A stretch of 64,000 nucleotides of DNA from an uncultured Alistipes sp. GTDB taxonomy: Bacteria > Bacteroidota > Bacteroidia > Bacteroidales > Muribaculaceae. The stretch lies in assembly GCA_964509345.1 (NCBI GenBank), contig CAZDWY010000009.1, forward strand, positions 3,119 through 67,118, in the 5' to 3' direction. The notes beneath the pieces were generated by a model. That model was given only the letters and a program-made list of their open reading frames with translations. It was not told where the DNA came from and ran no database searches. Positions 10,378 through 27,052 of this stretch are shown piece by piece. The first letter of the stretch is position 1. Every line of letters starts with the position of its first letter. The translations under genes were made by a program, and so were the position numbers.

Positions 10378-11685
10378 TCAGATAGAATTGTTTTGGTAAA
10401 AAATTAGAATTCGATATCGTAACAAATATTCATAATGTGCCTGAATAGATGAAACTTCTGTTCTGAAGAGATTATTTTTTGCCTGTTCGTATTCGCTTGG
10501 AGTAGCCCGCCCCATATTGTATTTTTCTCTGGTGGCTTCGTAGGATAGTGTTGTCTTTTCAAGTGTCTCTTTAGAGGCAAAATATTTATCTCGAGCTCCG
10601 CGTGCCTGATAATACGCTAACTGGATGGTTTTAAAAAGTTCAGATTCCTTGCGGTCTAATTCGAGTTCTGCAGATTGTTTCTGCAGTTTAGCTTTTCTGA
10701 TAGAGTTTCTAGTAGAGAAACCATCAAAAATTGGAATTGATAGACTGAAACCGAGATATGTAGAGTAATTATGGCGCATCTGTTCGCGGAATGTATCACT
10801 TTTATATCCTCCCACTGTATAGTAGCTTGAACCGAGACCTGCGTTGAAACTTAGACGAGGTATATATCCGCTTTGAGCGAGAGATATGTTGGTATCGGCA
10901 ACCTTAATTCCTTCTCGTGATGCCATAATGGAATTGTTATGTTGCAGAGCTGCATTGAAGACAGCATCCGATGTCGGAATAATAGGTTCATCTTCAGTAA
11001 GAGGACTTACATCAAATCCATTTGCTGTAGGGAGCTGGAGAAGATTTGCTAACTCTACAAGCGATACTTTTATGTCGTTCTCTGCAGTAACGACCTGAAG
11101 TTGATCCTGTGCCATCTGTGCCTCAGCATCGTATAAATCAGCTTCAGCAACTTTTCCTTCTTCAACGAGTGCACGCTGACGTTCCACCTCGAAAGTTGAG
11201 TGTTCGAGTTGACGTTCTGCTGATTTCATTACTTCTTTTGCATATAGTACTTGCAGATATTGTGATATGACATTCAGCGTAACATTATCCTTCGCCGCTT
11301 CGAATTCGTAAAGGAGACGGGAAAGGTTGTTTTTTGCCAGTTTCAGCTGACGGTATTCTGATAGTCCTTGAAACAATGGAAGATTCAATGATGCACCCCA
11401 CTGGAAATTTGTTGTATTTCTGTCAGCATAGGTATTTGACGCAGTCAGTCCACGACCGAAACTCAGGCTTTCAGAAATATTCGCGTTCAACGATGGAAGG
11501 AAACGGTCTTTTGCATCAGTAATGCTTTGCTCTCCATCAGCTATATTCAACTGGGCGTTCTTTACATTAAGATTATTCGTGATAGCGTAATCAACACACT
11601 GTTCGAGATTCCAGGTTTCTGCGAGAGCGCACACTGTGGTAAGCATTGCGCATGCGGTTATATATGATTTATGAAATATTTTCAT
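10378..11685 (-). CDS. TolC family outer-membrane efflux protein
   Basis: 435 aa with a signal peptide and two OEP-type repeats. It is the last gene of the efflux operon. Confidence 0.9.
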   Translation of the reverse strand: MKIFHKSYITACAMLTTVCALAETWNLEQCVDYAITNNLNVKNAQLNIADGEQSITDAKDRFLPSLNANISESLSFGRGLTASNTYADRNTTNFQWGASLNLPLFQGLSEYRQLKLAKNNLSRLLYEFEAAKDNVTLNVISQYLQVLYAKEVMKSAERQLEHSTFEVERQRALVEEGKVAEADLYDAEAQMAQDQLQVVTAENDIKVSLVELANLLQLPTANGFDVSPLTEDEPIIPTSDAVFNAALQHNNSIMASREGIKVADTNISLAQSGYIPRLSFNAGLGSSYYTVGGYKSDTFREQMRHNYSTYLGFSLSIPIFDGFSTRNSIRKAKLQKQSAELELDRKESELFKTIQLAYYQARGARDKYFASKETLEKTTLSYEATREKYNMGRATPSEYEQAKNNLFRTEVSSIQAHYEYLLRYRILIFYQNNSI

Positions 11686-11693
11686 TGTTCTGT

Positions 11694-12794
11694 TCAGTTA
11701 GTACGGTTGCCACGGAGTTGAATATCCTTGTCTATGAGTGGTGATTTCAGTTCTACTTGCAAGCCGTCGGATACTCCGGTTGTAATAGATGTACGGTCAA
11801 ACTGTTGGGAATTAGCTGCTGATTTTAAAACATAAACAAAAGCACTGTCACCTTTGTACTCTATTACCCTCTCCGGGATAGACAGGACATCCTCAGCTTT
11901 TTCCAATATCACAGTCGCATTTGCACTGTATCCTGCACGCAGTTTCATAGACAATGAATCTACATTAAGAGCTGCTTTTATCTCAAATGTATTTGTTCCG
12001 TTTTCATCGGTTGCGATGGGAGCGATTTTTTCTATGACTGCTGCAATATCTGAACCGACTACCGCTCCGATTGCAATTCGAGTCGACATACCTTCAGTAA
12101 GTAGATCCACTTCAGTCTCATCTACTTTACCCACAAATATCAGGTCTTTCATATCGGCTACTTTTGCTATGGTGGTTCCATCGTTGAAGGTGTTGGCTTG
12201 AATTACTGATGTGCCAACCTTTACAGGGACTTCAAGAACAACTCCGGTGACAGTTGAGCGCACAAGAGTATTGGATCCTTGAGCATTATTGGAGGAAACA
12301 CCATCACGAACAATAGCAAGTTGATCGTACGCCTGATCAAGTTCTGATTTTGCTTGATTGTAGGTTGCTTCATCTGTCTCGAATTTTTCCCGGCTTTCAA
12401 ATTTTTTCTCATACAGCGCTTTTGTTCGTTCATAAATAAGGCGCTGTTGTTCAAGATTGATTTCGGCAATCCGGACACGGTTTTGTGCAGATGAAAGTTG
12501 TGCTTCGTCTGGTATTACCTTAATTTTTGCGATGATGTCACCAGTATTGACATGGTCGCCTGCTTCTACTAAAACTTCATTGATAATTCCTGAGATCTGA
12601 GGTTTTATCTCAATTTCATCGCGTGGCTCGATTTTACCGGTAAGAACGGTGGTACGTTCGATAGTAGCTATCGATGGATTAACAAGTTCGTATTCAGGTT
12701 GTTTCTCGCGAGCATTCAGAATAAGATAGACAAAGGTGCCTACGAATATTGCTGCGATTAATACCCAGAGTGTAATCTTGAAAAACTTTTTCAT
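11694..12794 (-). CDS. Efflux periplasmic adaptor subunit (HlyD/MFP family)
   Basis: N-terminal TM anchor, a lipoyl-like motif (GDHVNTGDIIAKI), a coiled-coil hairpin and a beta-barrel domain. Confidence 0.9.
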   Translation of the reverse strand: MKKFFKITLWVLIAAIFVGTFVYLILNAREKQPEYELVNPSIATIERTTVLTGKIEPRDEIEIKPQISGIINEVLVEAGDHVNTGDIIAKIKVIPDEAQLSSAQNRVRIAEINLEQQRLIYERTKALYEKKFESREKFETDEATYNQAKSELDQAYDQLAIVRDGVSSNNAQGSNTLVRSTVTGVVLEVPVKVGTSVIQANTFNDGTTIAKVADMKDLIFVGKVDETEVDLLTEGMSTRIAIGAVVGSDIAAVIEKIAPIATDENGTNTFEIKAALNVDSLSMKLRAGYSANATVILEKAEDVLSIPERVIEYKGDSAFVYVLKSAANSQQFDRTSITTGVSDGLQVELKSPLIDKDIQLRGNRTN

Positions 12795-15338: not shown

Positions 15339-16001
15339 TTATCGACGTATTATACCGTCACAAATTCGTATGATTCTGTCAGTCCGCTCTCCAACTGTAG
15401 GATCGTGTGTTACGATTACCGTAGTCATTCCGTCGCGCCGGTTAAGCTCTTTGAAAAGTCCCATCACTTCGCGCGACGTAGTGCTGTCAAGTGCACCGGT
15501 TGGCTCATCGGCAAGAATGATAGATGGTTGGGTGATAAGTGCACGAGCAATTGCAACCCGCTGTTTTTGACCACCCGATAGTTCTCCCGGAAGATGATGT
15601 GCGCGATCGGCCAACCCAAGTTTATCAAGCTGCTCCATTGCGAGAATATTGCGTTTTTTTCTGCTTACACCTTGATAAAATAAGGGGAGGGCTACATTTT
15701 CTATAGCGTTTTTATAATTGATTAGGTTGAATGACTGAAATACAAATCCGATCATATGGTTGCGGTATTCGGCAGCTTTATTCTCTGAAAGATCTTTGAT
15801 TAGAGTACCGTCTAGCCAATATTCTCCAGAATCGTAATTATCAAGAATCCCGAGTATATTAAGTAATGTGGATTTACCAGATCCGGATGCCCCCATAATG
15901 GATACAAGCTCTCCTTTTTGTATTTCAAGGTTAATTCCTTTCAGCACATGTAGGGGGACTATACCCGGATATGTCTTGTTTACATCTTTTAAAGAAATCA
16001 T
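15339..16001 (-). CDS. ABC transporter ATP-binding protein (MacB/LolD-type, stand-alone NBD)
   Basis: Walker A GASGSGKST, signature LSGGQKQRVAIARAL and Walker B IILADEPTGALD are all canonical. Confidence 0.95.
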   Translation of the reverse strand: MISLKDVNKTYPGIVPLHVLKGINLEIQKGELVSIMGASGSGKSTLLNILGILDNYDSGEYWLDGTLIKDLSENKAAEYRNHMIGFVFQSFNLINYKNAIENVALPLFYQGVSRKKRNILAMEQLDKLGLADRAHHLPGELSGGQKQRVAIARALITQPSIILADEPTGALDSTTSREVMGLFKELNRRDGMTTVIVTHDPTVGERTDRIIRICDGIIRR

Positions 16002-16021: not shown

Positions 16022-16050
16022 TTAGACGAACTGAGTTTCACCAAAGTTGC
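16022..16050 (-). promoter_or_regulatory. Candidate ECF-sigma-type promoter GCAAC-N17-CGTCTAA upstream of the efflux operon
   Basis: The minus strand reads atGCAACtttggtgaaactcagttCGTCTAAcac, ending 20 nt before the ATG at 16001. Both half-sites are identical to those at 1154-1183. Confidence 0.4.
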
Positions 16051-16102
16051 ATGGAGCGAATATTTTTTTAATTATCTTCTTGCATGGTTAAACCATAATG
16101 TG

Positions 16103-16399: not shown

Positions 16400-16437
16400 C
16401 ATCCGATATATTGTAGTTGCCATCCGGATACAAATAA

Positions 16438-16466
16438 GGGCGTGTCAATAACTAACTGACACGCCC
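16438..16466 (-). terminator. Hairpin terminator after the last gene of the nine-gene cluster
   Basis: gggcgtgtca (16438-16447) pairs with tgacacgccc (16457-16466) in a 10-bp perfect stem. The minus-strand transcript continues with UUAUUUGUAU. Confidence 0.6.
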
Positions 16467-16506
16467 TCTCTCAATTATGTATTCGATTATATATCAGATG
16501 AAAGGC

Positions 16507-17121
16507 TTATTCTGGAAGAATCTCATATGAATAAGCTACAATGTAATATGAAGATAGGTAGGGTTTACCTTCTTTTTCAGCACGTTCTGCAATACGAGCA
16601 CGATAATCTGCGATTTGAGCTGCGAATGTATCAATCTCGCCCTGCCCTTGAGCCTTACGTTCAGTTTCACATCCGGTAGCTGCCTGATCGACAGCTGCAG
16701 CTTGTTCAGCTCCGGCTTGTTCAGCTATCATTTTTACCTGTTCTGCGTGCTGGGCTTCAATTTGCTTCACTTCCTCTTCACCAAGACGAGATTCAACAAG
16801 AATGCCGGTTACTTGCATCGGTTTGTGTACTGATTCCTGAGGAAATGCTCCACCCATTTCAGGAGTAGCCTCGCAACGGATCATTACATTCTCGTCAGAT
16901 CCAAGCAGAAATGCTTTTTTACCGCCATGAGCGCAAAGATGAGATACTACGCCTTCAACAGTGATAGTATCGCCCAGATATGCTTCGGGGTTTGCAACTA
17001 CAGAATCAATACTGACTACAACAGCATCTTCACTTGCATTGTTTTCAGCCTTGTTACCGCAAGAAGTGGCAATCGTCATTCCGATGAATGCAAGGGCTGA
17101 GATTAATACTGATTTTTTCAT
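16507..17121 (-). CDS. Lipoprotein, uncharacterised (Cys/His-containing N-domain, Ala/Glu/Gln-rich helical C-region)
   Basis: Lipobox MKKSVLISALAFIGMTIATSCG. The beta-rich segment is YLGDTITVEGVVSHLCAHGGKKAFLLG...MIRCE. AEQ-rich repeats follow. Confidence 0.6.
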   Translation of the reverse strand: MKKSVLISALAFIGMTIATSCGNKAENNASEDAVVVSIDSVVANPEAYLGDTITVEGVVSHLCAHGGKKAFLLGSDENVMIRCEATPEMGGAFPQESVHKPMQVTGILVESRLGEEEVKQIEAQHAEQVKMIAEQAGAEQAAAVDQAATGCETERKAQGQGEIDTFAAQIADYRARIAERAEKEGKPYLSSYYIVAYSYEILPE

Positions 17122-17156
17122 AATAGTTTGGAAATAGGATATTTTAAAATGTTATT

Positions 17157-18410
17157 TCAGTCTTTTAGTAGCATGAAAGGAATAAATGAGAAGATCCCGC
17201 AAATTAATGTGCTTGAGGCACCTGCGTATGTCCATATGTTCCGTCCCTTATTCTGCGCGAAGATCAATATCAAGGATAACAGCAGATTGAGATAGATTGC
17301 GTGCCAGCTTATGCGGGCAAAACGTGGATAAGCCAACGAGTCGCTTGTCGACACGAATGATAGGGTATATGGAAAGATATAGTCGGCTATCTTTGAGGCG
17401 GCATTACGAGGCTTCTCATAGTCGTAAGATCCTGCAAGCTTATACCCGTCTGGGGTACGCTCCACAGCTCTCCATCGCGAAACGCCATCACCAGTGAAAC
17501 GGAAAGTGAGGTTGAATAGATTTCCCATGCACATCAGATTTTCTTTTCTCGGATTGACTTTTCCGACCGGAAGCGGGAACACTTTGTATCCTTCCTTTTC
17601 TATAATATAGAAATTATTGTCGGTGTCAGATACGAATCCGAGGATGCTTTGGTTCGACTCTTCAAGGATGAATGCTTTATCTGCAGCTGCACTATGCGGC
17701 AATGGAATAGCTGCTACATAAGGGCGACCGGCACGCTGTTTTACGTGAAACAGTTTTCCATTATTGTCAATCATGAGATAGCCTTCATCATATTGTTTTC
17801 TTGAAGTGATATTAGCGGACAAATCTGCTGCAGGAAATGCAAACCCACGTTGCTTCATAGTTTCAGTGAATCTTTTTCCACGGTCTGGAACAACTGAATT
17901 TGTTGCCATATCGATGAATTCTATTTCACCGTTGTCAGTAAAACGGAACACTTCGGTTGGGTCTGATAATTCCACACGTACAGGCATTGACTCCATCATC
18001 ATCCATACACCGGGCTCGCGTTTTACAATGTCGCGTGGTGAACTTGAAAACATAAGTTCATGTGACCGAAGTTCATGAGCGTTTACCGCTTTGCCATGAA
18101 TGGAATCCGGGAGGCGGTCATGAGCCAGCAGTTCTTTATAAAAAAGCTGCGGAACGAGCGAATCACGTTCGTTGCGGGTTATAAAACTTATTGTCGGTCC
18201 ATCTGTAGCTCCTTCATTTTCAAGTATCATAATCTTAGGTTTCTCGCCTGGAGATGCCTGAGAGATTATCCATTTCTCATTAACCGGTGAAAAACTACAG
18301 AAAGGTTCACCGGATGAGGCAGGAAACATCAACGCATATATCCACGGTAGGAACCAACTGAGAACGGCTATCGCGACAATATAAAGAACTATTTTTGAGA
18401 AACTTTTCAT
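17157..18410 (-). CDS. Membrane-anchored protein with a large extracytoplasmic domain (DUF4857-like from memory)
   Basis: An N-terminal TM helix (IVLYIVAIAVLSWFLPWIYALMF), a soluble region of about 330 aa and two C-terminal TM helices. The ATG lies 2 nt after the upstream gene's stop codon. Confidence 0.6.
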   Translation of the reverse strand: MKSFSKIVLYIVAIAVLSWFLPWIYALMFPASSGEPFCSFSPVNEKWIISQASPGEKPKIMILENEGATDGPTISFITRNERDSLVPQLFYKELLAHDRLPDSIHGKAVNAHELRSHELMFSSSPRDIVKREPGVWMMMESMPVRVELSDPTEVFRFTDNGEIEFIDMATNSVVPDRGKRFTETMKQRGFAFPAADLSANITSRKQYDEGYLMIDNNGKLFHVKQRAGRPYVAAIPLPHSAAADKAFILEESNQSILGFVSDTDNNFYIIEKEGYKVFPLPVGKVNPRKENLMCMGNLFNLTFRFTGDGVSRWRAVERTPDGYKLAGSYDYEKPRNAASKIADYIFPYTLSFVSTSDSLAYPRFARISWHAIYLNLLLSLILIFAQNKGRNIWTYAGASSTLICGIFSFIPFMLLKD

Positions 18411-18412
18411 AA

Positions 18413-19084
18413 TCAGTCAATGAGCCCCTCCTTAAAGCGATTTACAGAGTATAATGAGAGTAGCATAAGAAGAAGTGTGAAAATTATAGCGCCACATATG
18501 ATGCCGTTGTAGGCTTGCGGTACGCTTTGCATATAGTAGACAGCCAATACTCCCAAAGCTATAAGACCTAAAACTATGCGCCTGCGCCATGTGCCTTCCA
18601 GACATATGGCAGCAGTGAACAGATAGGCATTCAGACCAGCTATATACCAGGGGATGGTAGTCAGCATCACATGTAATGTCATTTCCGCAGTAACTACCCC
18701 ATAATAATAGATGCCTATAATCAGTGCCTGAACAATGTATATCAGCAGACACTGAATCAATCCGGCACAGATCATTGTAAATATTAGTTTATTTTGCGGA
18801 TAGGGGAGATGCAGTGTCAGTTTGAGCCTCTTCTGCTGGGTTTCGGGGCTCATCTGTGCAACTCCAAGCGCAAGACCTATGACGGGAGGCAGATATTTGA
18901 TGGCATCTATGAAGGTCTGATCCTTCATAAGCATTATCAACCATATGTGCTCAACGCCGTGGGAGGTACCAACACGTCGGATACACATAATGGCGTATAT
19001 AGCGAATATGATCGCTACAAGAAGACTTACCCAGAATACACGCCTTGTCTTGATAAGCTCCTTGAAAAATATAGCTTGTGTCAT
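18413..19084 (-). CDS. Six-TM membrane protein, putative ABC-2-type permease
   Basis: 223 aa and about 6 hydrophobic helices, immediately downstream of the ABC ATPase. The role is assigned from topology and context only. Confidence 0.55.
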   Translation of the reverse strand: MTQAIFFKELIKTRRVFWVSLLVAIIFAIYAIMCIRRVGTSHGVEHIWLIMLMKDQTFIDAIKYLPPVIGLALGVAQMSPETQQKRLKLTLHLPYPQNKLIFTMICAGLIQCLLIYIVQALIIGIYYYGVVTAEMTLHVMLTTIPWYIAGLNAYLFTAAICLEGTWRRRIVLGLIALGVLAVYYMQSVPQAYNGIICGAIIFTLLLMLLSLYSVNRFKEGLID

Positions 19085-19136
19085 ATAAATCTGTTGTAGG
19101 GATTGGTGTTTTTGAATTGATTTTTCATTTGCTGGG

Positions 19137-20033
19137 TTAGTACCTACCTGTAAGTCCTATAAAAGCGTCTTCAAGTGAGGCCGGAGCCTCGCTTCTAAGA
19201 TCAGTAGGTCTGATTCCTTGATTTTCAAGCAGCTGTAGCACATCGGTTTCAGGCAGAAATGAATAAAATTCATTTTCGTCACCAGTATGCCACGGACTGA
19301 ATATTCCTTCTCCTGAAGGAAGGGATCCATCGGAATATGAATACCGGCGTAATGTTGTCATGAGCTCGTTGACAGGCATTTGCGTAAGAATCCGTCCGTA
19401 ATCCATGATAATACAATCGTCAACCAGGCGTTCAAGATCCTGTATAATATGTGAAGTCATAAAGACTGTTTTACCTTCGTTTTTCACAAAATCACGGAGG
19501 TATTCGATGAACAGACGGCGATAACCCGGATCAAGACCGAGTGAAAAGTCATCAAGGACGAGCAGGTCGGCATTCTGAGCGAGAATCAATCCCAATGCTA
19601 CCTGGGAGCGTTGACCGTTTGACATTGAAGAGATTTTCTGCTCAGGAGTTACTTTCAACTTTTTCATCAGACCGTAATAGGCATCGCTGTTCCATTTGGG
19701 GTGAAATTGCGAATAGAAACGCTCAATCTGTCTGATTGTCATGAATGAATATTGAACATGACCTTCCAGCAGGAGTGCGATACGACTGCGGGTGGATGCA
19801 GATATTTTAGTGATATCTTCTCCGAATATTTTACATTCTCCACTTTGAGGTTTAAGAAAGCCCATCAAAATATTGATGGTGGTTGTTTTTCCAGTGCCGT
19901 TTTTTCCGAGAAGACCCAATATGCGTCCTCGAGGCACTTCAAACGACAGATTCTCATATATGATACGACCTTTCCCGTAACGTTGGGTAAGGTTTTTCAC
20001 TGAGATAACAGATGTTTCAGGCTGATTGCTCAT
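19137..20033 (-). CDS. ABC transporter ATP-binding protein (ABC-2/DrrA-like) with variant catalytic motifs
   Basis: Walker A GKNGTGKTT and H-loop TSHIIQD are present. The signature reads MSNGQRSQ and Walker B reads LLVLDDF, with Asp where the catalytic Glu normally sits. There is a C-terminal extension of about 70 aa. Confidence 0.85.
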   Translation of the reverse strand: MSNQPETSVISVKNLTQRYGKGRIIYENLSFEVPRGRILGLLGKNGTGKTTTINILMGFLKPQSGECKIFGEDITKISASTRSRIALLLEGHVQYSFMTIRQIERFYSQFHPKWNSDAYYGLMKKLKVTPEQKISSMSNGQRSQVALGLILAQNADLLVLDDFSLGLDPGYRRLFIEYLRDFVKNEGKTVFMTSHIIQDLERLVDDCIIMDYGRILTQMPVNELMTTLRRYSYSDGSLPSGEGIFSPWHTGDENEFYSFLPETDVLQLLENQGIRPTDLRSEAPASLEDAFIGLTGRY

Positions 20034-20054
20034 TTATTGGTTGATTATATTTTA

Positions 20055-20062
20055 CAAAAGTA
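20055..20062 (-). promoter_or_regulatory. -7 box TACTTTTG (minus strand) upstream of the ABC ATPase gene
   Basis: TAnnTTTG match 22 nt upstream of the ATG at 20033. It could be an internal promoter within the cluster. Confidence 0.35.
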
Positions 20063-20114
20063 AGCAACTTTTTCTTATTTAACTGCATGTATGCTTTTAA
20101 AATCGATCTTAGGG

Positions 20115-21665
20115 TTAGAATTTTAGCCCTGCGGTCAGTTCAGTAGCGATAGCATTTCCATAATTCTGATAATGGGTATTATGACATCTTATTCCGAAGT
20201 TCAATGCCATACCGGTTGTCAGGAGTATGTCTGTTTCAATCTGTCCGCCATATTGAGTTGCCGCGCTTGACAGCATTGAGAAGTTATGACTGACGGATGC
20301 TCCTATCATTGAATTAGGGTCTAATCCAGGGAGAGATTCATTCTTTTTTGTAATAAAGCTATGATTGCCATATATTTTAAGTGCAAGAAGCAACGATTTT
20401 GAAGTATTCCATTCAACCGACATCAAAAGTTGTGGAGTACAGAATGTTACATGCGTATATCTTCTGGGTTTCCGGTAGTTTTCGTGGTCATATGCCATTG
20501 AAACACTTGGAATGAGTTCCATACGTGTTCTTTTCCGGATACATACAGACAAGGGGATGTCTAAATTTGCCAAAGCCCGGTCGTGATAATAATTTCTGCG
20601 ATACCCGATTCTTGGATAATGATTACCGACTGCACTTCCGTAGAGATTCTCAAATCCGAGTTGTCTTCGGACATTTATCGTTAGCCGAGGAGAACATACG
20701 ATGTCCCTTATCCTTATCTTATATCCTAACCGAATGCCGGCAAAATAATTTCCGGCGCGGGTGAGTTCAAGATTGTTGAAATTCCGCAGTATTTGTTTCA
20801 CCGGGAGATAATGAAATGACATATTAATAAAGCCACCTCGCAGCGATGTGTCAAATAGATTGATCTCAGTGCCTATGCCGAATGCATTATATGCGGTGCT
20901 GTTATTGGTATTACCACTGAACCGTGGGTTATAGTTTCCCAGTCCGAGTAATGCGAAGGTTTTGATTTCATTATTAGGATTATAAAATGTGACATCACTT
21001 TCCTGATTATAGACTCTAATATCAGCTCCGATGCCTACAGAATATGTGGAAAACAGACATCGTGACGCTCCAAGTCTGACAGCCAGGTCAGATACAATGA
21101 TTTTATCGCGTGGATCCCGGTTCCTGTAATCAATGGAGGCAGCATAGCTTACAAATGCGCCCCAGGTCCAGCCGTTATTTTCTCCGGCGTAGCCACCTGA
21201 AAAACTATATCTCTGTGATGTTAAATCTCCTCCGACGGAATCAGCAAGAACATATGGACCTATCAAATCGAAGTCAGCGGAATTATTCCATCTGATATTC
21301 CGGAATGTGCCGCTTTTGAATTGAGCTGCCCCCCATACTACAGCCTTCGAATTCAGTCGCATATATGAGGATGCGTCGACATAGCCAAACATATGTCCGG
21401 TTCCGGTCTGAATCATGTACGCATTATCACTATTGAGGTATTCTCCGCGAAGTGAAAATCCTGATATAGAGTATGAGCGTGCATAAAACATTGCTGAGGG
21501 ATTATTACCCACGGAGATATTGGCAAACTTATTCTCCTCGGATCTATCTGCGGAGATTCGTTCCAGCAGGCTGTTCGCCATATAATCATCTGTTTTATCT
21601 GCCGCAGATAAAGATAACCCACTGCTAAGTAGTACAACAGCAACTGATATGTTTTTATAAGCCAT
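20115..21665 (-). CDS. Outer-membrane beta-barrel protein, uncharacterised (DUF6850-like from memory)
   Basis: Signal peptide MAYKNISVAVVLLSSGLSLSAAD, alternating beta-strand pattern rich in Gly/Tyr/Asn, and a C-terminal ...TAGLKF aromatic OMP signature. Confidence 0.6.
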   Translation of the reverse strand: MAYKNISVAVVLLSSGLSLSAADKTDDYMANSLLERISADRSEENKFANISVGNNPSAMFYARSYSISGFSLRGEYLNSDNAYMIQTGTGHMFGYVDASSYMRLNSKAVVWGAAQFKSGTFRNIRWNNSADFDLIGPYVLADSVGGDLTSQRYSFSGGYAGENNGWTWGAFVSYAASIDYRNRDPRDKIIVSDLAVRLGASRCLFSTYSVGIGADIRVYNQESDVTFYNPNNEIKTFALLGLGNYNPRFSGNTNNSTAYNAFGIGTEINLFDTSLRGGFINMSFHYLPVKQILRNFNNLELTRAGNYFAGIRLGYKIRIRDIVCSPRLTINVRRQLGFENLYGSAVGNHYPRIGYRRNYYHDRALANLDIPLSVCIRKRTRMELIPSVSMAYDHENYRKPRRYTHVTFCTPQLLMSVEWNTSKSLLLALKIYGNHSFITKKNESLPGLDPNSMIGASVSHNFSMLSSAATQYGGQIETDILLTTGMALNFGIRCHNTHYQNYGNAIATELTAGLKF

Positions 21666-21690
21666 ATTTCTCGTTTGAGACAGATAAACT

Positions 21691-22929
21691 TTAATCGGTC
21701 TGTGAGGATATCACGATGAAGTCAGCTTTAGAGTCGTTCGTATCTTGAAAAATCACACGGTCATCTGAAGTTGTGGTAGCGACTTTTCGGCGGAAAATGC
21801 GACCGAAACGGTTCGGATCTGAATTTCTGTCGGATATGCACGCATAGCTTATGTCGATATTGTTGCCGAGTGCTCCATATATATAGGCCTCCGAGTTTCC
21901 GAGATTTACACCGTCAATTATCCAGGAATTTGGGATGAGATATGCGCGGTCATTGTGCATCTGCGTACCAATAGTTGATATATAATCATATCCACCATGA
22001 TATTGGCTAAGGTACTCTTCGGAAGTCATGCCATCAGGGAATTTAACCAGTGCATATGACCTGTTACATTGATTCGACATTATCCAAATGGTATTGGAGT
22101 AACAATACCATTTGGATAAATTGGGAACAGAGGGACTGTCAGTGTCCTGCGCGTTGTCATCATACCATTCGAAATCGGCATCTCTATGATCAAAAGCGCC
22201 TGAGACCTGAGTGCTCCAGTCAATAGCCTGATCAACGATTTTTAGAGATTTACCAGGTTCAATTGGAAAATCGGTTCCACTGCCGGGAATTACCCATATA
22301 GTGGCAGCTGTGAAATTTTTCTGGCGATCGTTGGCTTCTGTCAGTATCTCGTAAGTACTTGCTTTTGCATTGACAAGAGCAGATTCGACTATGCCAAGCC
22401 CATCGGCGTATATAGTTTGATCAGTATTATTGTAAATTTTAAAGTAACTGTCGCGGATTCCTCCCGTTGCAGTCGCGTTTGGAGAACCTGTCGCATATAT
22501 TTCTGAAAAGATGAGGGTGCCACCAGGATTGGAGAAGAACCATTCCAGATGTAAAGAAATTGGGCTGGATATAGTAACAGATGTACCTGCTACACGGAGC
22601 GTTTTTTCTACAGAAGTGCCTGTCTCTTCATCATGTGAATCAAATCTGATGGTTCCTTCGTAATCATATATTCCGAGAGGTACGCTACCAAGTTCCTCGG
22701 CAAATGGATCAATACGGTAGACCGATCCCGTATTGAGTTCGGTCATGGTTATAACAGCCGATTTTATAGAGGGAACACCTTCTGGGAGCTTATTAATAAA
22801 CGCAATTGGTATGCTATCGGCAACATCATCATCTTTATCATCGATACATGATGACAGGAGCAGGGGTGCCGAAAGAACTAATAATATTCTTCTCAACGTA
22901 TTCTTTTGTATATTCATATTATTTGACAA
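21691..22929 (-). CDS. Surface lipoprotein with an LTD-like segment (DUF4876-like from memory)
   Basis: Lipobox LLLSSCIDDKDDD. Residues ~138-181, LIFSEIYATGSP...DSYFKIYNNTDQTIYADGLGI, resemble the lamin-tail-domain pattern I-x-E-I...E/Y-F-x-E/I-Y-N...V/Y-D/A-L/G. Confidence 0.6.
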   Translation of the reverse strand: MSNNMNIQKNTLRRILLVLSAPLLLSSCIDDKDDDVADSIPIAFINKLPEGVPSIKSAVITMTELNTGSVYRIDPFAEELGSVPLGIYDYEGTIRFDSHDEETGTSVEKTLRVAGTSVTISSPISLHLEWFFSNPGGTLIFSEIYATGSPNATATGGIRDSYFKIYNNTDQTIYADGLGIVESALVNAKASTYEILTEANDRQKNFTAATIWVIPGSGTDFPIEPGKSLKIVDQAIDWSTQVSGAFDHRDADFEWYDDNAQDTDSPSVPNLSKWYCYSNTIWIMSNQCNRSYALVKFPDGMTSEEYLSQYHGGYDYISTIGTQMHNDRAYLIPNSWIIDGVNLGNSEAYIYGALGNNIDISYACISDRNSDPNRFGRIFRRKVATTTSDDRVIFQDTNDSKADFIVISSQTD

Positions 22930-22934
22930 TCATA

Positions 22935-25715
22935 TTAAAATTTCAAGTTAAGTTCCATACCGAAATATGGCGAGGTGTACCTGCGTTGCAGGGTTCCATA
23001 CAGGTAATAATCCGGTGTTATGCTTAGGAGACGATTTACATATATGGCTATTCCGATGCGGTCGTTCCAGAGTTTTTTTGTAGCTTTTATATTAAATGTA
23101 GTGGCAACCGGTACCTTGCGTGCTTCAAATGCCGTAGCGGAATATTCGCGGATAAGCTGGCTGAGATAGGGGTCGTCTGCCATCCCAGGAGTGAAAGGAA
23201 TAACTTCACCATCTACACCCATATAGAATTCAGGAATCCCGTTCTTAAATAGAGTTTGCTGTGATGTAAACCACATGTTTTGGATTGCGATTGAAAAGTT
23301 CAGTCCAAGACGTGGAACATCGGTATCAAACATGAAGTTAGTATTAAATGACTGATACACGCTGCCTTCTTTATCATCGTAAAAACCTGCGAAAGGAAGT
23401 TCAACTCCGTTTACAATAGTGTTTGGTTTATACCATAATCCTACACTATTGGAAAGAGTTGTTCTGAACCAAGCACCACTGACAGTAGCACGCGTTCGTA
23501 TGACCGGTATACGGCATGAGGAGAATGTGAACTCAACCCCTTCTTTCTTTACCCGAGAGCTATTGGACGCATGACTTACAGATGCAAGCCGCTGTTCTAT
23601 CTGCCAAGGCAATTCCTCGATAACGGGTGCATGACCCGTTTCCTCGGGATTGTATCCGGATGCGTCGTAGCGACGATATTCATATATATGTATGAACGGT
23701 GCCTGTCGGAAAGCATCTTTCATGTCTTCCCGGAAATATGTGACTGACAGACGATTGTTGCGATATGTGATGTCGCCGCGAACTTCCCATTTGAAGTTGC
23801 GCGCTGCCCGTAGATTGTAATTGGTTATATCCTCCACAAACGTATATACATTCATGGCGCGGTATTCTTCTTCGTTGTGAAAATAATTGAGCTGCACATA
23901 ATCGGTATATCTCGTATCCGGAAACAGATAAGCTGCTACCGGCATTTTAGTATGCCATCCGAAGCCAGTTCCGATTTCCCAACCGATCGGATATTCTTTA
24001 ACGAAAAGTTGAGGAAGGGTCCATTTGGCATTGATGCGTGGGTCAAAATATGGTTTGTTGTTAAGGTAATACCGGTTTCCAAGGTTCAACAACTGAGTTT
24101 CCCGTACACCAAGCTGCAATTCAATAAAATGATCTTCAAAATGAAATTCCGATGTGTTTTCTGCATATAACGAAAGCTGATTCATGCCTGGAATGTCGCT
24201 GAAAGCGCGTGGACGGGTTATGTTGCCAGCCACTATCGGACGCATGACATCGTATATCTGTCCTTTACCGAAATTCTTTGAATAATTGTATTCGCCACCT
24301 ATTTTCAGCTGATTGGTAATATGAATGAAGTCATATCTAAACTGTGAGGCGGCCTTTAGAACAGATGTAAAAGGCTTCCCATCCACATCAAGAACGGCCG
24401 TATATACCATAGGGAGGTAACCTACATAGTTTGAGCCTGGTTTAGTAGAGATTGGCATAGGATACAGGCGTGAGGATGCAATAGTTTTATCCTGATGCAG
24501 TTTTTCGGTGCTGTAACTCAGTCCGGCTGTAATTACCAACGACTGAAAAAAACGCTTTTGGGGTGCGATAAATGAGAGTGTGTTATCCCATGTGAAATTA
24601 TTGTTGTCGGAGGTAAAATAGTCGATAGTTCCGTTTACGGTAAGATCGGGATCGTTCTTATCACGTTCGAATGTACCGGTGTAATTCAATGATGTATTCC
24701 ATGTGGTTTTTATCCGAGTTCCATTCCAAGTTTTGGAAGACCTGATGGATCCGGTTACACGTTTGAAGTTCTCGCGGGTATTGCGTGGGTCAATTTTACT
24801 GTCGAGATAGTCTGCTGAAACATTTGTTGTCCAATCTTTTCCCGGCATATTGAAACCTTTTCCAAGAAAAAACAGTTGGCTCTGCATATCGGCCTTGAAT
24901 CGGACGTTCAGCCCCGATGCGCCGGACTTACGCTTGATATTTACCAGCCCTGATGTTACTTCACCATATTCTGCCGACGCGATTCCCCTGACAACTTCCA
25001 CACTTTCGATGTCGTCAGTAGATATGGATCGCATATCTACACCCTTTCCTGTAGTTAGACGCGATGTTCTGTCTGCATCGGCAGTGACTTGCATATTTGC
25101 ATTAGTATTGACAGGAACACCGTCTACAACAAATGATGTTCCGAGCGAAGATGTATCGAAGCCATCATTGGATGCGTTGCCAGCCTGTCTTAGATTTGCG
25201 AGATTGGCTTTTCCCATTTCAGGATCCTTGCTTACAGATCCTGGAAGTAATTCCATGAGATCTGTAAAACTCGATGGTTGAAGATGCTCCATAGCTTTAC
25301 GGTCAATCAGCGACGAGCTTGATATGCCTCTTCCTTCTCGTGCAGTGATAACGACTTCACCAATCTGTGTATATGAAGGTTTGAGCCTAAAGGTAAACGT
25401 CTGATCAATGTTCTTGCTCTCTATTTCGGTAGCGATGGGAGTAAACCCAACTGAGGAAATAGATAGATGCCATTTCCCTAAAGAGAGGGATGATGTTGTA
25501 AATACACCTTCAATATCGGTAAGCCCCCCTATATTCTCATCGCCATGTGTGAAGGCGACGGCAACAAACTCCAGAGGGGTACCGGTGTCACTGTCCTCTA
25601 CTTTTATCGACAGTGTATAAGCCTGCGCGGGATAAGATAATAATAGAAACAGAATCAGACACACCAAGGATGTCGGGACGTGTACATCGCGATGTTGTGC
25701 ACATGATTTTCTCAT
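22935..25715 (-). CDS. TonB-dependent receptor with a carboxypeptidase-regulatory-like N-domain
   Basis: 926 aa. The N-terminal YTLSIKVEDSDTGTPLEFVAVAF is a CarboxypepD_reg-like domain. The plug motif is DIESVEVVRGIASAEYGEVTSGLVNI. The C-terminus ends ...ELNLKF. Confidence 0.85.
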   Translation of the reverse strand: MRKSCAQHRDVHVPTSLVCLILFLLLSYPAQAYTLSIKVEDSDTGTPLEFVAVAFTHGDENIGGLTDIEGVFTTSSLSLGKWHLSISSVGFTPIATEIESKNIDQTFTFRLKPSYTQIGEVVITAREGRGISSSSLIDRKAMEHLQPSSFTDLMELLPGSVSKDPEMGKANLANLRQAGNASNDGFDTSSLGTSFVVDGVPVNTNANMQVTADADRTSRLTTGKGVDMRSISTDDIESVEVVRGIASAEYGEVTSGLVNIKRKSGASGLNVRFKADMQSQLFFLGKGFNMPGKDWTTNVSADYLDSKIDPRNTRENFKRVTGSIRSSKTWNGTRIKTTWNTSLNYTGTFERDKNDPDLTVNGTIDYFTSDNNNFTWDNTLSFIAPQKRFFQSLVITAGLSYSTEKLHQDKTIASSRLYPMPISTKPGSNYVGYLPMVYTAVLDVDGKPFTSVLKAASQFRYDFIHITNQLKIGGEYNYSKNFGKGQIYDVMRPIVAGNITRPRAFSDIPGMNQLSLYAENTSEFHFEDHFIELQLGVRETQLLNLGNRYYLNNKPYFDPRINAKWTLPQLFVKEYPIGWEIGTGFGWHTKMPVAAYLFPDTRYTDYVQLNYFHNEEEYRAMNVYTFVEDITNYNLRAARNFKWEVRGDITYRNNRLSVTYFREDMKDAFRQAPFIHIYEYRRYDASGYNPEETGHAPVIEELPWQIEQRLASVSHASNSSRVKKEGVEFTFSSCRIPVIRTRATVSGAWFRTTLSNSVGLWYKPNTIVNGVELPFAGFYDDKEGSVYQSFNTNFMFDTDVPRLGLNFSIAIQNMWFTSQQTLFKNGIPEFYMGVDGEVIPFTPGMADDPYLSQLIREYSATAFEARKVPVATTFNIKATKKLWNDRIGIAIYVNRLLSITPDYYLYGTLQRRYTSPYFGMELNLKF

Positions 25716-25815
25716 ATATGAGGGGTTCCTTTATAAAATATAATATACTGGTTCTATAATTAACTAATAACGTGGATTGATTGAATTTTATTGTCCTTTA
25801 GAAGATTATATTGTT

Positions 25816-26382
25816 TCAATATTCTTCATTGCCAAGTATGGTCTCCATTGTTTTTAGATCATACCGGAACCGTCTGTCAATATAAAAACCTATTATTGCT
25901 CCAATCAATCCACCGATAATTCCTCCAATCACACAACTATGGTCACCAGTATCATAAAATGTCCATAATATCATCGAAATCAGCGGGACAGCAAGAATAA
26001 TCAGGAAAATCTTACATCTGTTGCGTAGCTTAACAAAATACCTGATGAAACTGATGGCATTTACTGTGGGAATTGTGGCAAAATCAGTTTTGCGAAGTTT
26101 AAAAAACATATAGAGATTCAGTGTAATTGTAAGGAGCATGAAAACTTCATATGATATAACAAGCCATATTGGGAAAGGAATATGTTCCATAATTGCGAGC
26201 AAATATATCATAAACGTAAATCCGGCTACCGCCAAAATAAAAAGTCTGCGCATTATGCGCTGTTTTTCAGAAGTCGGAAGATGATGTGGGCTTTCGGGGG
26301 CGCCCCCGAAAGCAGGCGCCTCTATCGAGAGGCGCCTCCAGTTTTTGCGCAGCTGCTCAATATTATATTTGTCTGTATTCAT
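25816..26382 (-). CDS. Multi-pass membrane protein downstream of the ECF sigma gene (possible anti-sigma or sensor)
   Basis: 188 aa with a cytoplasmic N-terminus of about 46 aa followed by about 4 TM helices; not FecR-like. An alternative start at 26253 (MRRLFILAV...) would place the GC-rich palindromes in the intergenic spacer. Confidence 0.5.
   Translation of the reverse strand: MNTDKYNIEQLRKNWRRLSIEAPAFGGAPESPHHLPTSEKQRIMRRLFILAVAGFTFMIYLLAIMEHIPFPIWLVISYEVFMLLTITLNLYMFFKLRKTDFATIPTVNAISFIRYFVKLRNRCKIFLIILAVPLISMILWTFYDTGDHSCVIGGIIGGLIGAIIGFYIDRRFRYDLKTMETILGNEEY
26290..26337. repeat. Two adjacent GC-rich perfect palindromes (24 nt and 24 nt) containing three GGCGCC sites
   Basis: 26290-26313, gctttcgggggcgcccccgaaagc, is self-complementary. 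At 26314-26337, aggcgcctct-atcg-agaggcgcct forms a 10-bp stem with a 4-nt loop. The local GC content is far above the surrounding AT-rich sequence. Confidence 0.8.
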
Positions 26383-26431
26383 TTTATATGTATTGGCGAT
26401 TCTATGTAATAGGATAAGTCCGACAGTATTC

Positions 26432-26944
26432 TTAACTATCGCTCATTTTCATTAGCTTTTGCTTGCACCGGTGTAGTCTGGCTGCCACATTATTCCGTTG
26501 TAGGCCTGTTACCTCTCCTATTTCCTGATAGCTCTTTTCATCAAGCCACATCAGAATTATAGCTTTATCCAAAGCCGGAAGACGGTTAATAAGATTGTAC
26601 ATCTCCCGTAGGCAACTTGCATGCTCATGATCTTCACATGCCATGTCTGCAAGATCCATCATTTCCGGAGAACTTATTGAGAGATTCTGATCATGTTTGC
26701 GCGAGCGTCGGAAGCAGCTGATACAAGTGTTGATGCATATCCGGTAAATCCAGGTTGTAGCGGAACTTTCTCCCCGGAATTTTTCAAGTGATTGCCACAA
26801 ATTGATGAGGGTTTCCTGATATAGGTCATTGAAATGATCCGGATCACGGGCATACATATAACAGACTTTGGTGAGAACCGCTTTATTGTCTCTCACCAGA
26901 TTTTCAAACTCGATTTCTTTTTGTCTGTCCCTATTGTTATGCAT
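26432..26944 (-). CDS. RNA polymerase ECF-type sigma-70 factor
   Basis: Region 2 DLYQETLINLWQSLEKFRGESSATTWIYRICINTCI and region 4 LPALDKAIILMWLDEKSYQEIGEVTGLQRNNVAARLHRCKQKL. Confidence 0.9.
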   Translation of the reverse strand: MHNNRDRQKEIEFENLVRDNKAVLTKVCYMYARDPDHFNDLYQETLINLWQSLEKFRGESSATTWIYRICINTCISCFRRSRKHDQNLSISSPEMMDLADMACEDHEHASCLREMYNLINRLPALDKAIILMWLDEKSYQEIGEVTGLQRNNVAARLHRCKQKLMKMSDS

Positions 26945-26970
26945 GTATATCCCAGGACGCTACACTTACG

Positions 26971-26998
26971 TTAGTCGTACAAAGCCATGAAAAGTTGC
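26971..26998 (-). promoter_or_regulatory. Candidate ECF-sigma-type promoter GCAAC-N16-CGACTAA
   Basis: The minus strand reads atGCAACttttcatggctttgtaCGACTAAc, ending 26 nt upstream of the sigma gene ATG at 26944. It resembles the motifs at 1154-1183 and 16022-16050. Confidence 0.35.
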
Positions 26999-27052
26999 AT
27001 TACTGTCAATAAAATTATGAGAAATGGATTCATACATAATTATATAACACAT

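Follow-up and report, generated by a model that had tools for sequence, protein, structure and literature searches.

A conserved seven-gene cluster of Bacteroidales joining a lidded TonB-dependent receptor to an unusual ABC complex: a candidate two-membrane iron-acquisition system

Gut Bacteroidales compete with their host and with pathogens for iron. The XusABC system of Bacteroides comprises a TonB transporter, a surface lipoprotein and a PepSY-type inner-membrane protein, the latter being a ferric-siderophore reductase, and the step that follows outer-membrane uptake and reduction has been stated to be unknown (PMC13142918). The proteins of the DUF4876 family have been predicted to be lids of non-SusC TonB transporters; for two members, BT1938 and BT3632, AlphaFold-Multimer places the protein on the outer face of the receptor, and proximity to a receptor is conserved in 59-81 genera (bioRxiv 10.1101/2023.03.17.533168). 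According to an RNA-seq study, the Bacteroides thetaiotaomicron genes BT3625-BT3633 are induced 37- to 128-fold by iron depletion, and the Porphyromonas gingivalis genes PG1019-22, coding for a DUF4876 protein, a receptor and hypothetical proteins, are upregulated 20- to 214-fold under the same condition (PMC10434189). In excess hemin, a log fold change of -5.4 was reported for the DUF4876 gene of P. gingivalis (PMC10470040). The present analysis concerns a related cluster of nine minus-strand genes at positions 16507-26944 of a stretch of 64,000 nucleotides (further referred to as the window) from an uncultured Alistipes sp. of the Muribaculaceae (contig CAZDWY010000009.1). Comparison with orthologous loci revealed that seven of these genes form a conserved unit, which is considered, with some reserve, to be a probable two-membrane iron-acquisition system of Bacteroidales. 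An initial annotation of the window, which had found no assignable function for the cluster and no experimental role for its DUF families, was too strong in this respect, given the published lid prediction and the iron-induced loci.

Among the described loci, BT3625-BT3633 came closest to the Bacteroides-type loci of the present set. Its genes are annotated, in the iron-depletion study, as coding for a DUF4857 protein, a hypothetical protein at the position of the permease, an ATPase of the ATP-binding cassette (ABC) type, two PepSY_TM proteins, a fimbrillin-family lipoprotein, DUF4876 proteins and a TonB receptor (PMC10434189). BT3633 and BT3632 constitute the predicted receptor-lid pair. By the same annotations, the locus differs from that of the window in that a second DUF4876-like gene and the gene for the fimbrillin-family lipoprotein BT3630 replace the DUF6850 gene and the gene for a lipoprotein with a predicted oligonucleotide/oligosaccharide-binding (OB) fold, that two PepSY_TM genes are present and the window has none, and that a gene for a sigma factor of the extracytoplasmic function (ECF) type is not among the genes listed. 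BT3630 has been described as a lipoprotein of the surface and of outer-membrane vesicles (PMC11554821). The pairs BT1938-39 and PG1019-20 likewise combine the same lid family with a neighbouring non-SusC receptor and respond to iron or hemin, but the papers report no ABC half for them. XusABC shares with the cluster a TonB transporter with a surface lipoprotein, shares with the relatives of the window a PepSY-type inner-membrane protein, and is linked to iron limitation in the same organisms (PMC13142918). However, the lid XusB belongs to DUF4374, and Xus has no DUF6850 protein, ABC ATPase and permease, DUF4857 protein or OB-fold lipoprotein. Conversely, family searches of the window cluster retrieved neither a DUF4374 protein nor a PepSY_TM gene, so that it does not belong to the XusABC systems. 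Hence, the cluster type is already known as an iron-induced locus of B. thetaiotaomicron, and its lid family has been treated in earlier publications. The present analysis adds the definition of the seven-gene unit and its breadth, a palindromic candidate operator and its link with feoAB, a family of OB-fold lipoproteins with an H-x-C-x-H...C motif, invariant non-canonical residues in the ATPase, and the loss of the operator in the window lineage, part of which also has an ECF sigma pair.

The initial annotation described the cluster as a nine-gene unit headed by a sigma factor. The nine open reading frames (ORFs), separated by gaps of 2-100 nt, were indeed found, and independent gene calls for a public assembly of the same DNA (L081) gave the same nine genes. 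One genome per species was scanned with the DUF4857 profile, which yielded 207 relatives; 80 loci with 10-kb flanks were analysed, the ORFs of which were searched with the nine window proteins. The genes coding for the receptor, DUF4876 protein, DUF6850 protein, ABC ATPase, permease, DUF4857 protein and OB-fold lipoprotein occurred on one strand and in this order in 39 of these 80 loci, and most other loci displayed the same arrangement, curtailed by a contig end or by the start-site filter. Independent gene calls agreed with this synteny. The core was found in Muribaculaceae, Bacteroides, Phocaeicola vulgatus and Parabacteroides, with DUF4857 identities down to 33-38%, and median gaps amounted to 6 nt between the permease and DUF4857 genes and to 13 nt between the DUF4876 and DUF6850 genes. 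The initially noted succession of an outer-membrane half and an ABC half is real; both halves travel together and are collinear in the great majority of the loci, L056 being the exception. A conserved unit of nine genes was not borne out. The sigma factor gene and the adjacent gene for a protein with four transmembrane (TM) segments were present in three of the 80 loci only (L002, L005 and L007; 61-83% DUF4857 identity), and L003 and L004, which are equally close to the window, lack both. The conserved unit therefore consists of seven genes, the sigma pair being a lineage-specific addition outside this core.

Some variation on the seven-gene arrangement was observed. The gene for the small lipoprotein is located between the DUF6850 and ABC genes in Bacteroides, Phocaeicola vulgatus and Parabacteroides, and it lies downstream in inverted orientation in three loci (L060-L062). 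The loci of B. intestinalis, at first seemingly incomplete, do contain diverged DUF4876 and DUF6850 genes. An extra gene of the PepSY_TM_like_2 family, coding for a protein of approximately 190 amino acids (aa), occurred inside the cluster in 21 loci (among L053, L060-L080 and L082, for example L076:7783-8358), encompassing Bacteroides, Phocaeicola, Parabacteroides and others; the window lacks it. Separately, a database protein of 585 aa (P0363) consists of a DUF4857 protein fused to the OB-fold lipoprotein, including the lipoprotein signal peptide. It is probably a read-through or gene-calling artefact, yet it shows both genes to be adjacent in another genome.

The outer-membrane half of the window cluster starts with a TonB-dependent receptor of 926 aa (22935-25715, as all following cluster genes on the minus strand). 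Pfam assigned a CarbopepD_reg_2 domain and a Plug domain (1.9e-11) to it, these alone preceding the barrel, and no STN domain was found; the barrel model itself was unmatched in the window protein but matched in the orthologues of L070 and L082. Orthologues of this receptor scored 680-1900 bits in the loci. No SusC model was retrieved among its NCBIfam matches at an E value of 0.01, and it is classified here as non-SusC. The second gene codes for a lipoprotein of 412 aa (21691-22929) that belongs to DUF4876 (PF16215; 1.5e-40). Indeed, the assignments to DUF4876, DUF6850 and DUF4857, which the initial annotation had proposed, were all confirmed by hidden Markov model searches against Pfam (139.7, 244.8 and 264.7 bits versus gathering cutoffs of 27.9, 27 and 25, respectively), and the ORFs at 25816-26382, 18413-19084 and 16507-17121 matched no Pfam family above the cutoff. 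The DUF4876 protein of the window matched a structure deposited as 'putative lipoprotein' (PDB 4q1z; 2.7e-10). At least two acidic residues at positions +2 to +6 after the lipidated cysteine were present in 65 of 68 homologues, the window protein reading CIDDKDD, and from this surface-export signal of Bacteroidetes the lipoprotein is predicted to face outward. It is accordingly predicted, in line with the published models, to be the surface-exposed lid of the receptor. In the public gene calls, this protein starts from an ATG four codons past the TTG used here (408 aa). The third gene codes for a DUF6850 protein of 516 aa (20115-21665), matched over its full length (PF21012; 2.8e-72). A signal peptide and a C-terminal phenylalanine were noted, and the protein is presumed to be a second outer-membrane barrel. 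The public gene calls place its start 28 codons later (488 aa), which would drop the signal peptide; the longer form agrees with the alignment of homologues. According to the best-supported reading, this half functions in the manner of the other non-SusC TonB transporters with lids in Bacteroides.

A link with iron was found in the DNA upstream of the receptor genes. An 18-bp palindrome, ATACCTA-N4-TAGGTAT, recurs there in the relatives (L008-L080), at 55-220 nt from the receptor start codon and just 5' of a Bacteroidetes -7 box (TAnnTTTG). With at most one mismatch, it occurred 19 times in 12.75 kb upstream of receptor genes versus twice in 833 kb of other locus DNA; scoring by weight matrix placed 36 of 56 loci above the 99th percentile of the null distribution, and about a dozen further loci carried a weaker variant that keeps the right half-site. 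In L062, a copy stands in front of the inverted lipoprotein gene. Metagenome contigs were also scanned for the perfect palindrome, which gave at least 121 sites in at least 120 stretches (L084-L203). Among the matches listed, 105 of 121 perfect palindromes lay outside ORFs of at least 150 aa, and 87 ORFs started within 350 nt of a site and pointed away from it. The commonest domains encoded by these 87 ORFs were FeoA (6), four FeoB domains (5 each) and CarbopepD_reg_2 (6), and further ones were Plug (4), TetR (4), TonB barrel (3), hemerythrin (3) and Fe-S biosynthesis (2). Individual checks revealed FeoA-FeoB fusions at L094, L133 and L156, receptors at L086, L107 and L162, and receptor-DUF4876 pairs preceded by the palindrome at L101 and L136. 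The palindrome, mostly intergenic and most often adjacent to feoAB and TonB receptor genes, is accordingly a marker of an iron regulon in Bacteroidota. It is probably, to judge from these surroundings, the operator of an iron-responsive regulator of Bacteroidota and, by its upstream DNA, the seven-gene cluster belongs to the regulon so marked in most relatives. A search of the literature, including for a Bacteroides Fur box, did not retrieve a description of ATACCTA-N4-TAGGTAT. With the operator defined, the members of this iron regulon could be mapped across Bacteroidota.

No characterised system corresponds to the inner-membrane half. The ATPase (19137-20033; ABC_tran) is of the ABC-2/ABCA-like class; its best NCBIfam matches were PmtA, DrrA and GldA, all under their cutoffs, and its best PDB matches were the nucleotide-binding domains of ABCA7, ABCA3 and ABCA1. 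It keeps the Walker A motif, the signature motif (S-N/C-GQR), the Walker B aspartate and the H-loop. In the alignment with ABCA proteins, Glu90 stands opposite the Q-loop glutamine and Asp162 opposite the catalytic glutamate after Walker B, and both substitutions were invariant in 76 of 76 cluster homologues. The next gene codes for a membrane protein of 223 aa (18413-19084) with weak matches to ABC2_membrane_2 (E value of 0.13) and ABC2_membrane_4. Its gene always lies between the ATPase and DUF4857 genes in the loci, and it is referred to here as the permease. His46, Trp48, His92, Cys161 and Glu163 were invariant in 22 homologues of it, and may be metal ligands in or near the membrane. The DUF4857 protein (17157-18410; 417 aa; PF16149, 1.1e-78) has one N-terminal and two C-terminal TM segments according to a hydropathy scan, as the initial annotation had proposed. 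Its AlphaFold2 model (predicted local distance difference test, pLDDT, of 82; predicted template modelling score of 0.75) displayed an N-terminal TM helix, a beta-rich domain and C-terminal helices, and the periplasmic domain appears propeller-like in this model. Proteins of 402-417 aa with C-terminal TM helices are found in Muribaculaceae-type loci and in L060 and L062, labelled 'Alistipes'; those of the Bacteroides type (L063-L080, for example L076:10001-11029) count 342-362 aa and lack these helices. Profile searches with the DUF6850 protein, the permease and the small lipoprotein retrieved no relative in the PDB, and sequence searches with the DUF4857 protein and the receptor gave no PDB match.

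The last gene of the cluster codes for the small lipoprotein of 204 aa (16507-17121), the Cys/His content of which had been noticed in the initial annotation. It matched no family in Pfam or NCBIfam, and all its named database homologues are called 'hypothetical'; the family comprises 973 representative clusters at 50% identity (E value up to 1e-3). A motif His61-x-Cys63-x-His65 and a further Cys151 were invariant across the loci, down to 38% identity, and among 122 representatives His61 and Cys63 were each present in 117, His65 in 97 and Cys151 in 76, with 33 more in gapped columns for the latter. An AlphaFold2 model (pLDDT of 85) consisted of an OB fold followed by a helical hairpin, for which Foldseek retrieved generic OB folds only. 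The acidic export signal after the lipidated cysteine was absent in 64 of 72 homologues, and the protein is predicted from this to face the periplasm, where it would be a candidate metal or ligand carrier.

Two described ABC systems deserve comparison with this half, the initial annotation having pointed to their formally analogous layout. NosDFYL delivers copper to nitrous oxide reductase, an exporter-fold ABC complex handing the metal from a lipoprotein to a periplasmic partner. In both cases, genes for an exporter-fold ABC ATPase, a large periplasmic partner and a lipoprotein with Cys and His residues occur together with that of a 6-TM permease, which is of the ABC-2 type in NosDFYL and weakly ABC-2-like in the present cluster. 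In contrast, no match to the NosD, NosL or NosY families was obtained, the DUF4857 protein is modelled as propeller-like and not as a beta-helix, the lipoprotein is modelled with an OB fold, and the cluster has no NosZ client and is coupled to a TonB receptor. NosDFYL is therefore plausible as the nearest functional analogy, for an ATP-driven transfer of metal in the periplasm, not as a system to which the cluster belongs. GldAFG resembles the cluster in that the ATPase is weakly similar to GldA and that an accessory protein has TM helices at both ends of a periplasmic domain. However, the ATPase scored 119.2 bits with the GldA model TIGR03522 versus a cutoff of 402.6, the DUF4857 protein matched neither GldG nor ABC_transp_aux, the Bacteroides-type DUF4857 proteins lack the C-terminal helices, and the genomic context differs.

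The following mechanism may be proposed. At the cell surface, the DUF4876 protein would cap the non-SusC receptor and help to capture an iron-bearing ligand, a ferric chelate being the likeliest one. The OB-fold lipoprotein, the motif of which contains two histidines and two cysteines, would take over the metal or the ligand in the periplasm, and in many relatives a PepSY_TM-like reductase encoded in the cluster may act at this periplasmic step. At the inner membrane, the ATPase, the His/Cys-containing permease and the DUF4857 protein would form a complex that uses ATP either for onward transfer of the cargo or for removal of the spent carrier. The operon would be repressed through the iron-regulon operator in most relatives; in the window lineage, which lacks this operator, the ECF sigma factor and its 4-TM partner, encoded immediately upstream, may drive or modulate expression. 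A bolder version of this scheme can be put forward only tentatively and is, on balance, doubtful: the ABC half and the OB-fold lipoprotein would constitute a new ATP-driven machine for the periplasmic hand-off or import of iron, NosDFYL-like in principle but built from unrelated parts, which would supply the missing step after TonB uptake and reduction, and the window lineage would have moved from an iron repressor to an ECF sigma factor with an unclassified 4-TM anti-sigma factor. In any case, the cluster is widespread, and its combination of a lidded TonB receptor with an unusual ABC complex and a candidate metal carrier of the periplasm provides testable candidates for this missing step.

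Several points weigh against iron acquisition as the function of the seven genes. The ATPase and the permease are of the exporter class, and import through them would be unusual. The DUF4857 model matched beta-propellers only, weakly, with TM-scores of 0.2-0.3 in Foldseek, and metal binding by the lipoprotein is a prediction, if a reasonable one, from its sequence. As the operator is lacking in the window, control by iron is shown for the relatives only. All expression data come from loci that share Pfam families with the cluster, the homology of BT3625-BT3633 resting on the published annotations, and the DUF4857 protein of B. thetaiotaomicron was not among the 120 matches listed in a search with the Bacteroides-type profile. 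Furthermore, the receptor BT3633 and the DUF4876 protein BT3632 had no clear phenotype in 519 fitness experiments, and neither had the DUF4876 protein BT1938 (bioRxiv 10.1101/2023.03.17.533168). Finally, the iron-depletion study mentions dipyridyl and a chelator; if the chelator was used, a metal other than iron could have been the signal (PMC10434189).

This last point leads to an alternative in which the same architecture would serve another cargo, namely zinc, copper, nickel, cobalt or heme instead of a ferric chelate. A site composed of two histidines and two cysteines is typical of zinc, copper and nickel as well as of Fe(II), and PepSY_TM genes also accompany the copper receptor OprC in Pseudomonas. 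In addition, the response of the P. gingivalis DUF4876 gene to hemin supply would fit heme (PMC10470040). Nevertheless, the palindrome is common to feoAB, hemerythrin and Fe-S biogenesis genes. Copper enzymes are few in gut Bacteroidales. Moreover, the PepSY_TM proteins of Bacteroides have been linked to the reduction of ferric siderophores (PMC13142918). Another cargo is accordingly considered rather unlikely.

A second alternative concerns the window lineage, in which the cluster might be an envelope-stress or export machine controlled by the ECF sigma factor, the ABC-2 pump expelling or remodelling an envelope component or a toxic compound, with the receptor being secondary. Such a function would suit an ATPase that is closest to the exporter families PmtA, DrrA and ABCA, and the absence of the iron operator from the window. 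Indeed, the best weight-matrix scores in the window were 0.9 upstream of the sigma gene, 0.2 upstream of the receptor gene and -6.6 upstream of the ABC gene, versus a threshold of 6.9; the few higher-scoring near-matches checked elsewhere in the window lie inside genes, and the scores of L002-L005 equalled the null median. The sigma factor (26432-26944; 170 aa; Sigma70_r2 and Sigma70_r4_2 in Pfam, TIGR02937) is preceded by a candidate ECF-type promoter, TGCAAC-N16-CGACTAA (26971-26999, minus strand), and this proposal of the initial annotation is supported by the conserved form TG(C/T)AAC-N16/17-CG(A/T)C(T/A)AA that the window, L002 and L005 have in common. The same motif type, TGCAAC-N17-CGTCTAA, occurs at 16022-16051 on the minus strand, approximately 20 nt ahead of the MacB-type efflux operon next to the cluster, and this copy is also kept in the closest relative (L002:11936), so that the MacB-type operon may belong to an ECF sigma regulon. 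However, a further copy was found at 1153-1183 on the plus strand, ahead of the gene for a DUF6249 membrane protein (1229-2251) and the gene for a second ECF sigma factor (2311-2847). With copies at 26999, 16051 and 1153, the motif cannot be assigned to one sigma factor, and the two may have overlapping promoter specificities. Nor was this motif found directly 5' of the receptor gene, in the gap of 100 nt that precedes it; in L005 and L007, this region contains an ordinary -7 box. Above all, the sigma and 4-TM genes are absent from 77 of the 80 loci while the seven genes stay together. An export or stress function is thus deemed quite unlikely.

Under the preferred reading of an iron-acquisition system, the regulation in the window lineage remains distinctive. 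The lineage represents a natural regulatory swap, in that the operator was lost and, in part of the lineage only, an ECF sigma factor with a membrane partner was gained; this sigma factor may control the seven genes, by read-through or otherwise. The partner (25816-26382; 188 aa) has four TM segments by hydropathy scan, as described initially, and matched no family even at an E value of 1, nor a FecR or DUF4974 domain; it is possibly a non-canonical anti-sigma factor. Its identity as a diverged PepSY_TM reductase was also considered and rejected, as no similarity was found and the conserved histidines of PepSY are not kept in its orthologues. FecIRA, in which an ECF sigma gene likewise lies directly upstream of a TonB-dependent receptor gene, differs from the cluster in that the receptor of the latter is without an STN domain, that its membrane protein is without FecR or DUF4974 domains, and that the sigma gene is absent from most orthologous loci; the initial exclusion of a FecIR locus was hence justified. 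The swap could reveal how such systems get re-wired.

A third possibility, that three genes for outer-membrane uptake and four genes of the inner-membrane ABC half form two unrelated units lying merely side by side, is highly improbable. L056 (1-8300) is the sole clear case of ABC, permease, DUF4857 and lipoprotein genes without receptor, DUF4876 and DUF6850 genes, and pairs of DUF4876 and receptor genes without an ABC half occur as BT1938/39 and in P. gingivalis (PMC10434189). In addition, the initial annotation had proposed that a -7 box at 20055-20062 (minus strand; TACTTTTG) may drive the ABC half independently. This box is present and fits TAnnTTTG in the gap of 81 nt before the window ABC gene, but the significance of so short a motif is low. 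As 31 of 70 relatives have at most 30 nt between the DUF6850 and ABC genes, an internal promoter is not the rule. The two halves are adjacent and co-oriented in nearly all other loci, across families and down to 33-38% identity. Moreover, the lipoprotein gene moves between the halves in Bacteroides-type loci, and its inverted copy in L062 has an operator of its own. On a separate note, the genes upstream of the ABC half in L056 are on the opposite strand.

A nutrient locus of the polysaccharide-utilisation type would fit the CarboxypepD_reg-like domain at the N-terminus of the receptor, a domain common in Bacteroidota receptors, but is scarcely credible, since, as the initial annotation had rightly held, there is no SusD-like protein, no glycoside hydrolase and no match to SusC (TIGR04056) in NCBIfam, the lipoprotein beside the receptor being a DUF4876 protein and the conserved neighbours an ABC system and a PepSY_TM gene.

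The surroundings of the cluster are unrelated to it. An LptF/G-type permease gene and tgt lie upstream, and PADLOC matched no defence-system model among the window cluster proteins, the ATPase alone giving generic P-loop matches. The strong terminator reported 3' of the cluster was recovered as an intrinsic terminator at 16436-16468 (minus strand), with a stem of 14 bp containing seven GC pairs, and a T-rich tail. Downstream follows the MacB-type efflux operon mentioned above, which codes for an ATPase (15339-16001), two MacB_PCD/FtsX permeases, an HlyD protein (11694-12794) and an OEP protein (10378-11685), the ATPase at 15339-16001 being a canonical ABC ATPase.

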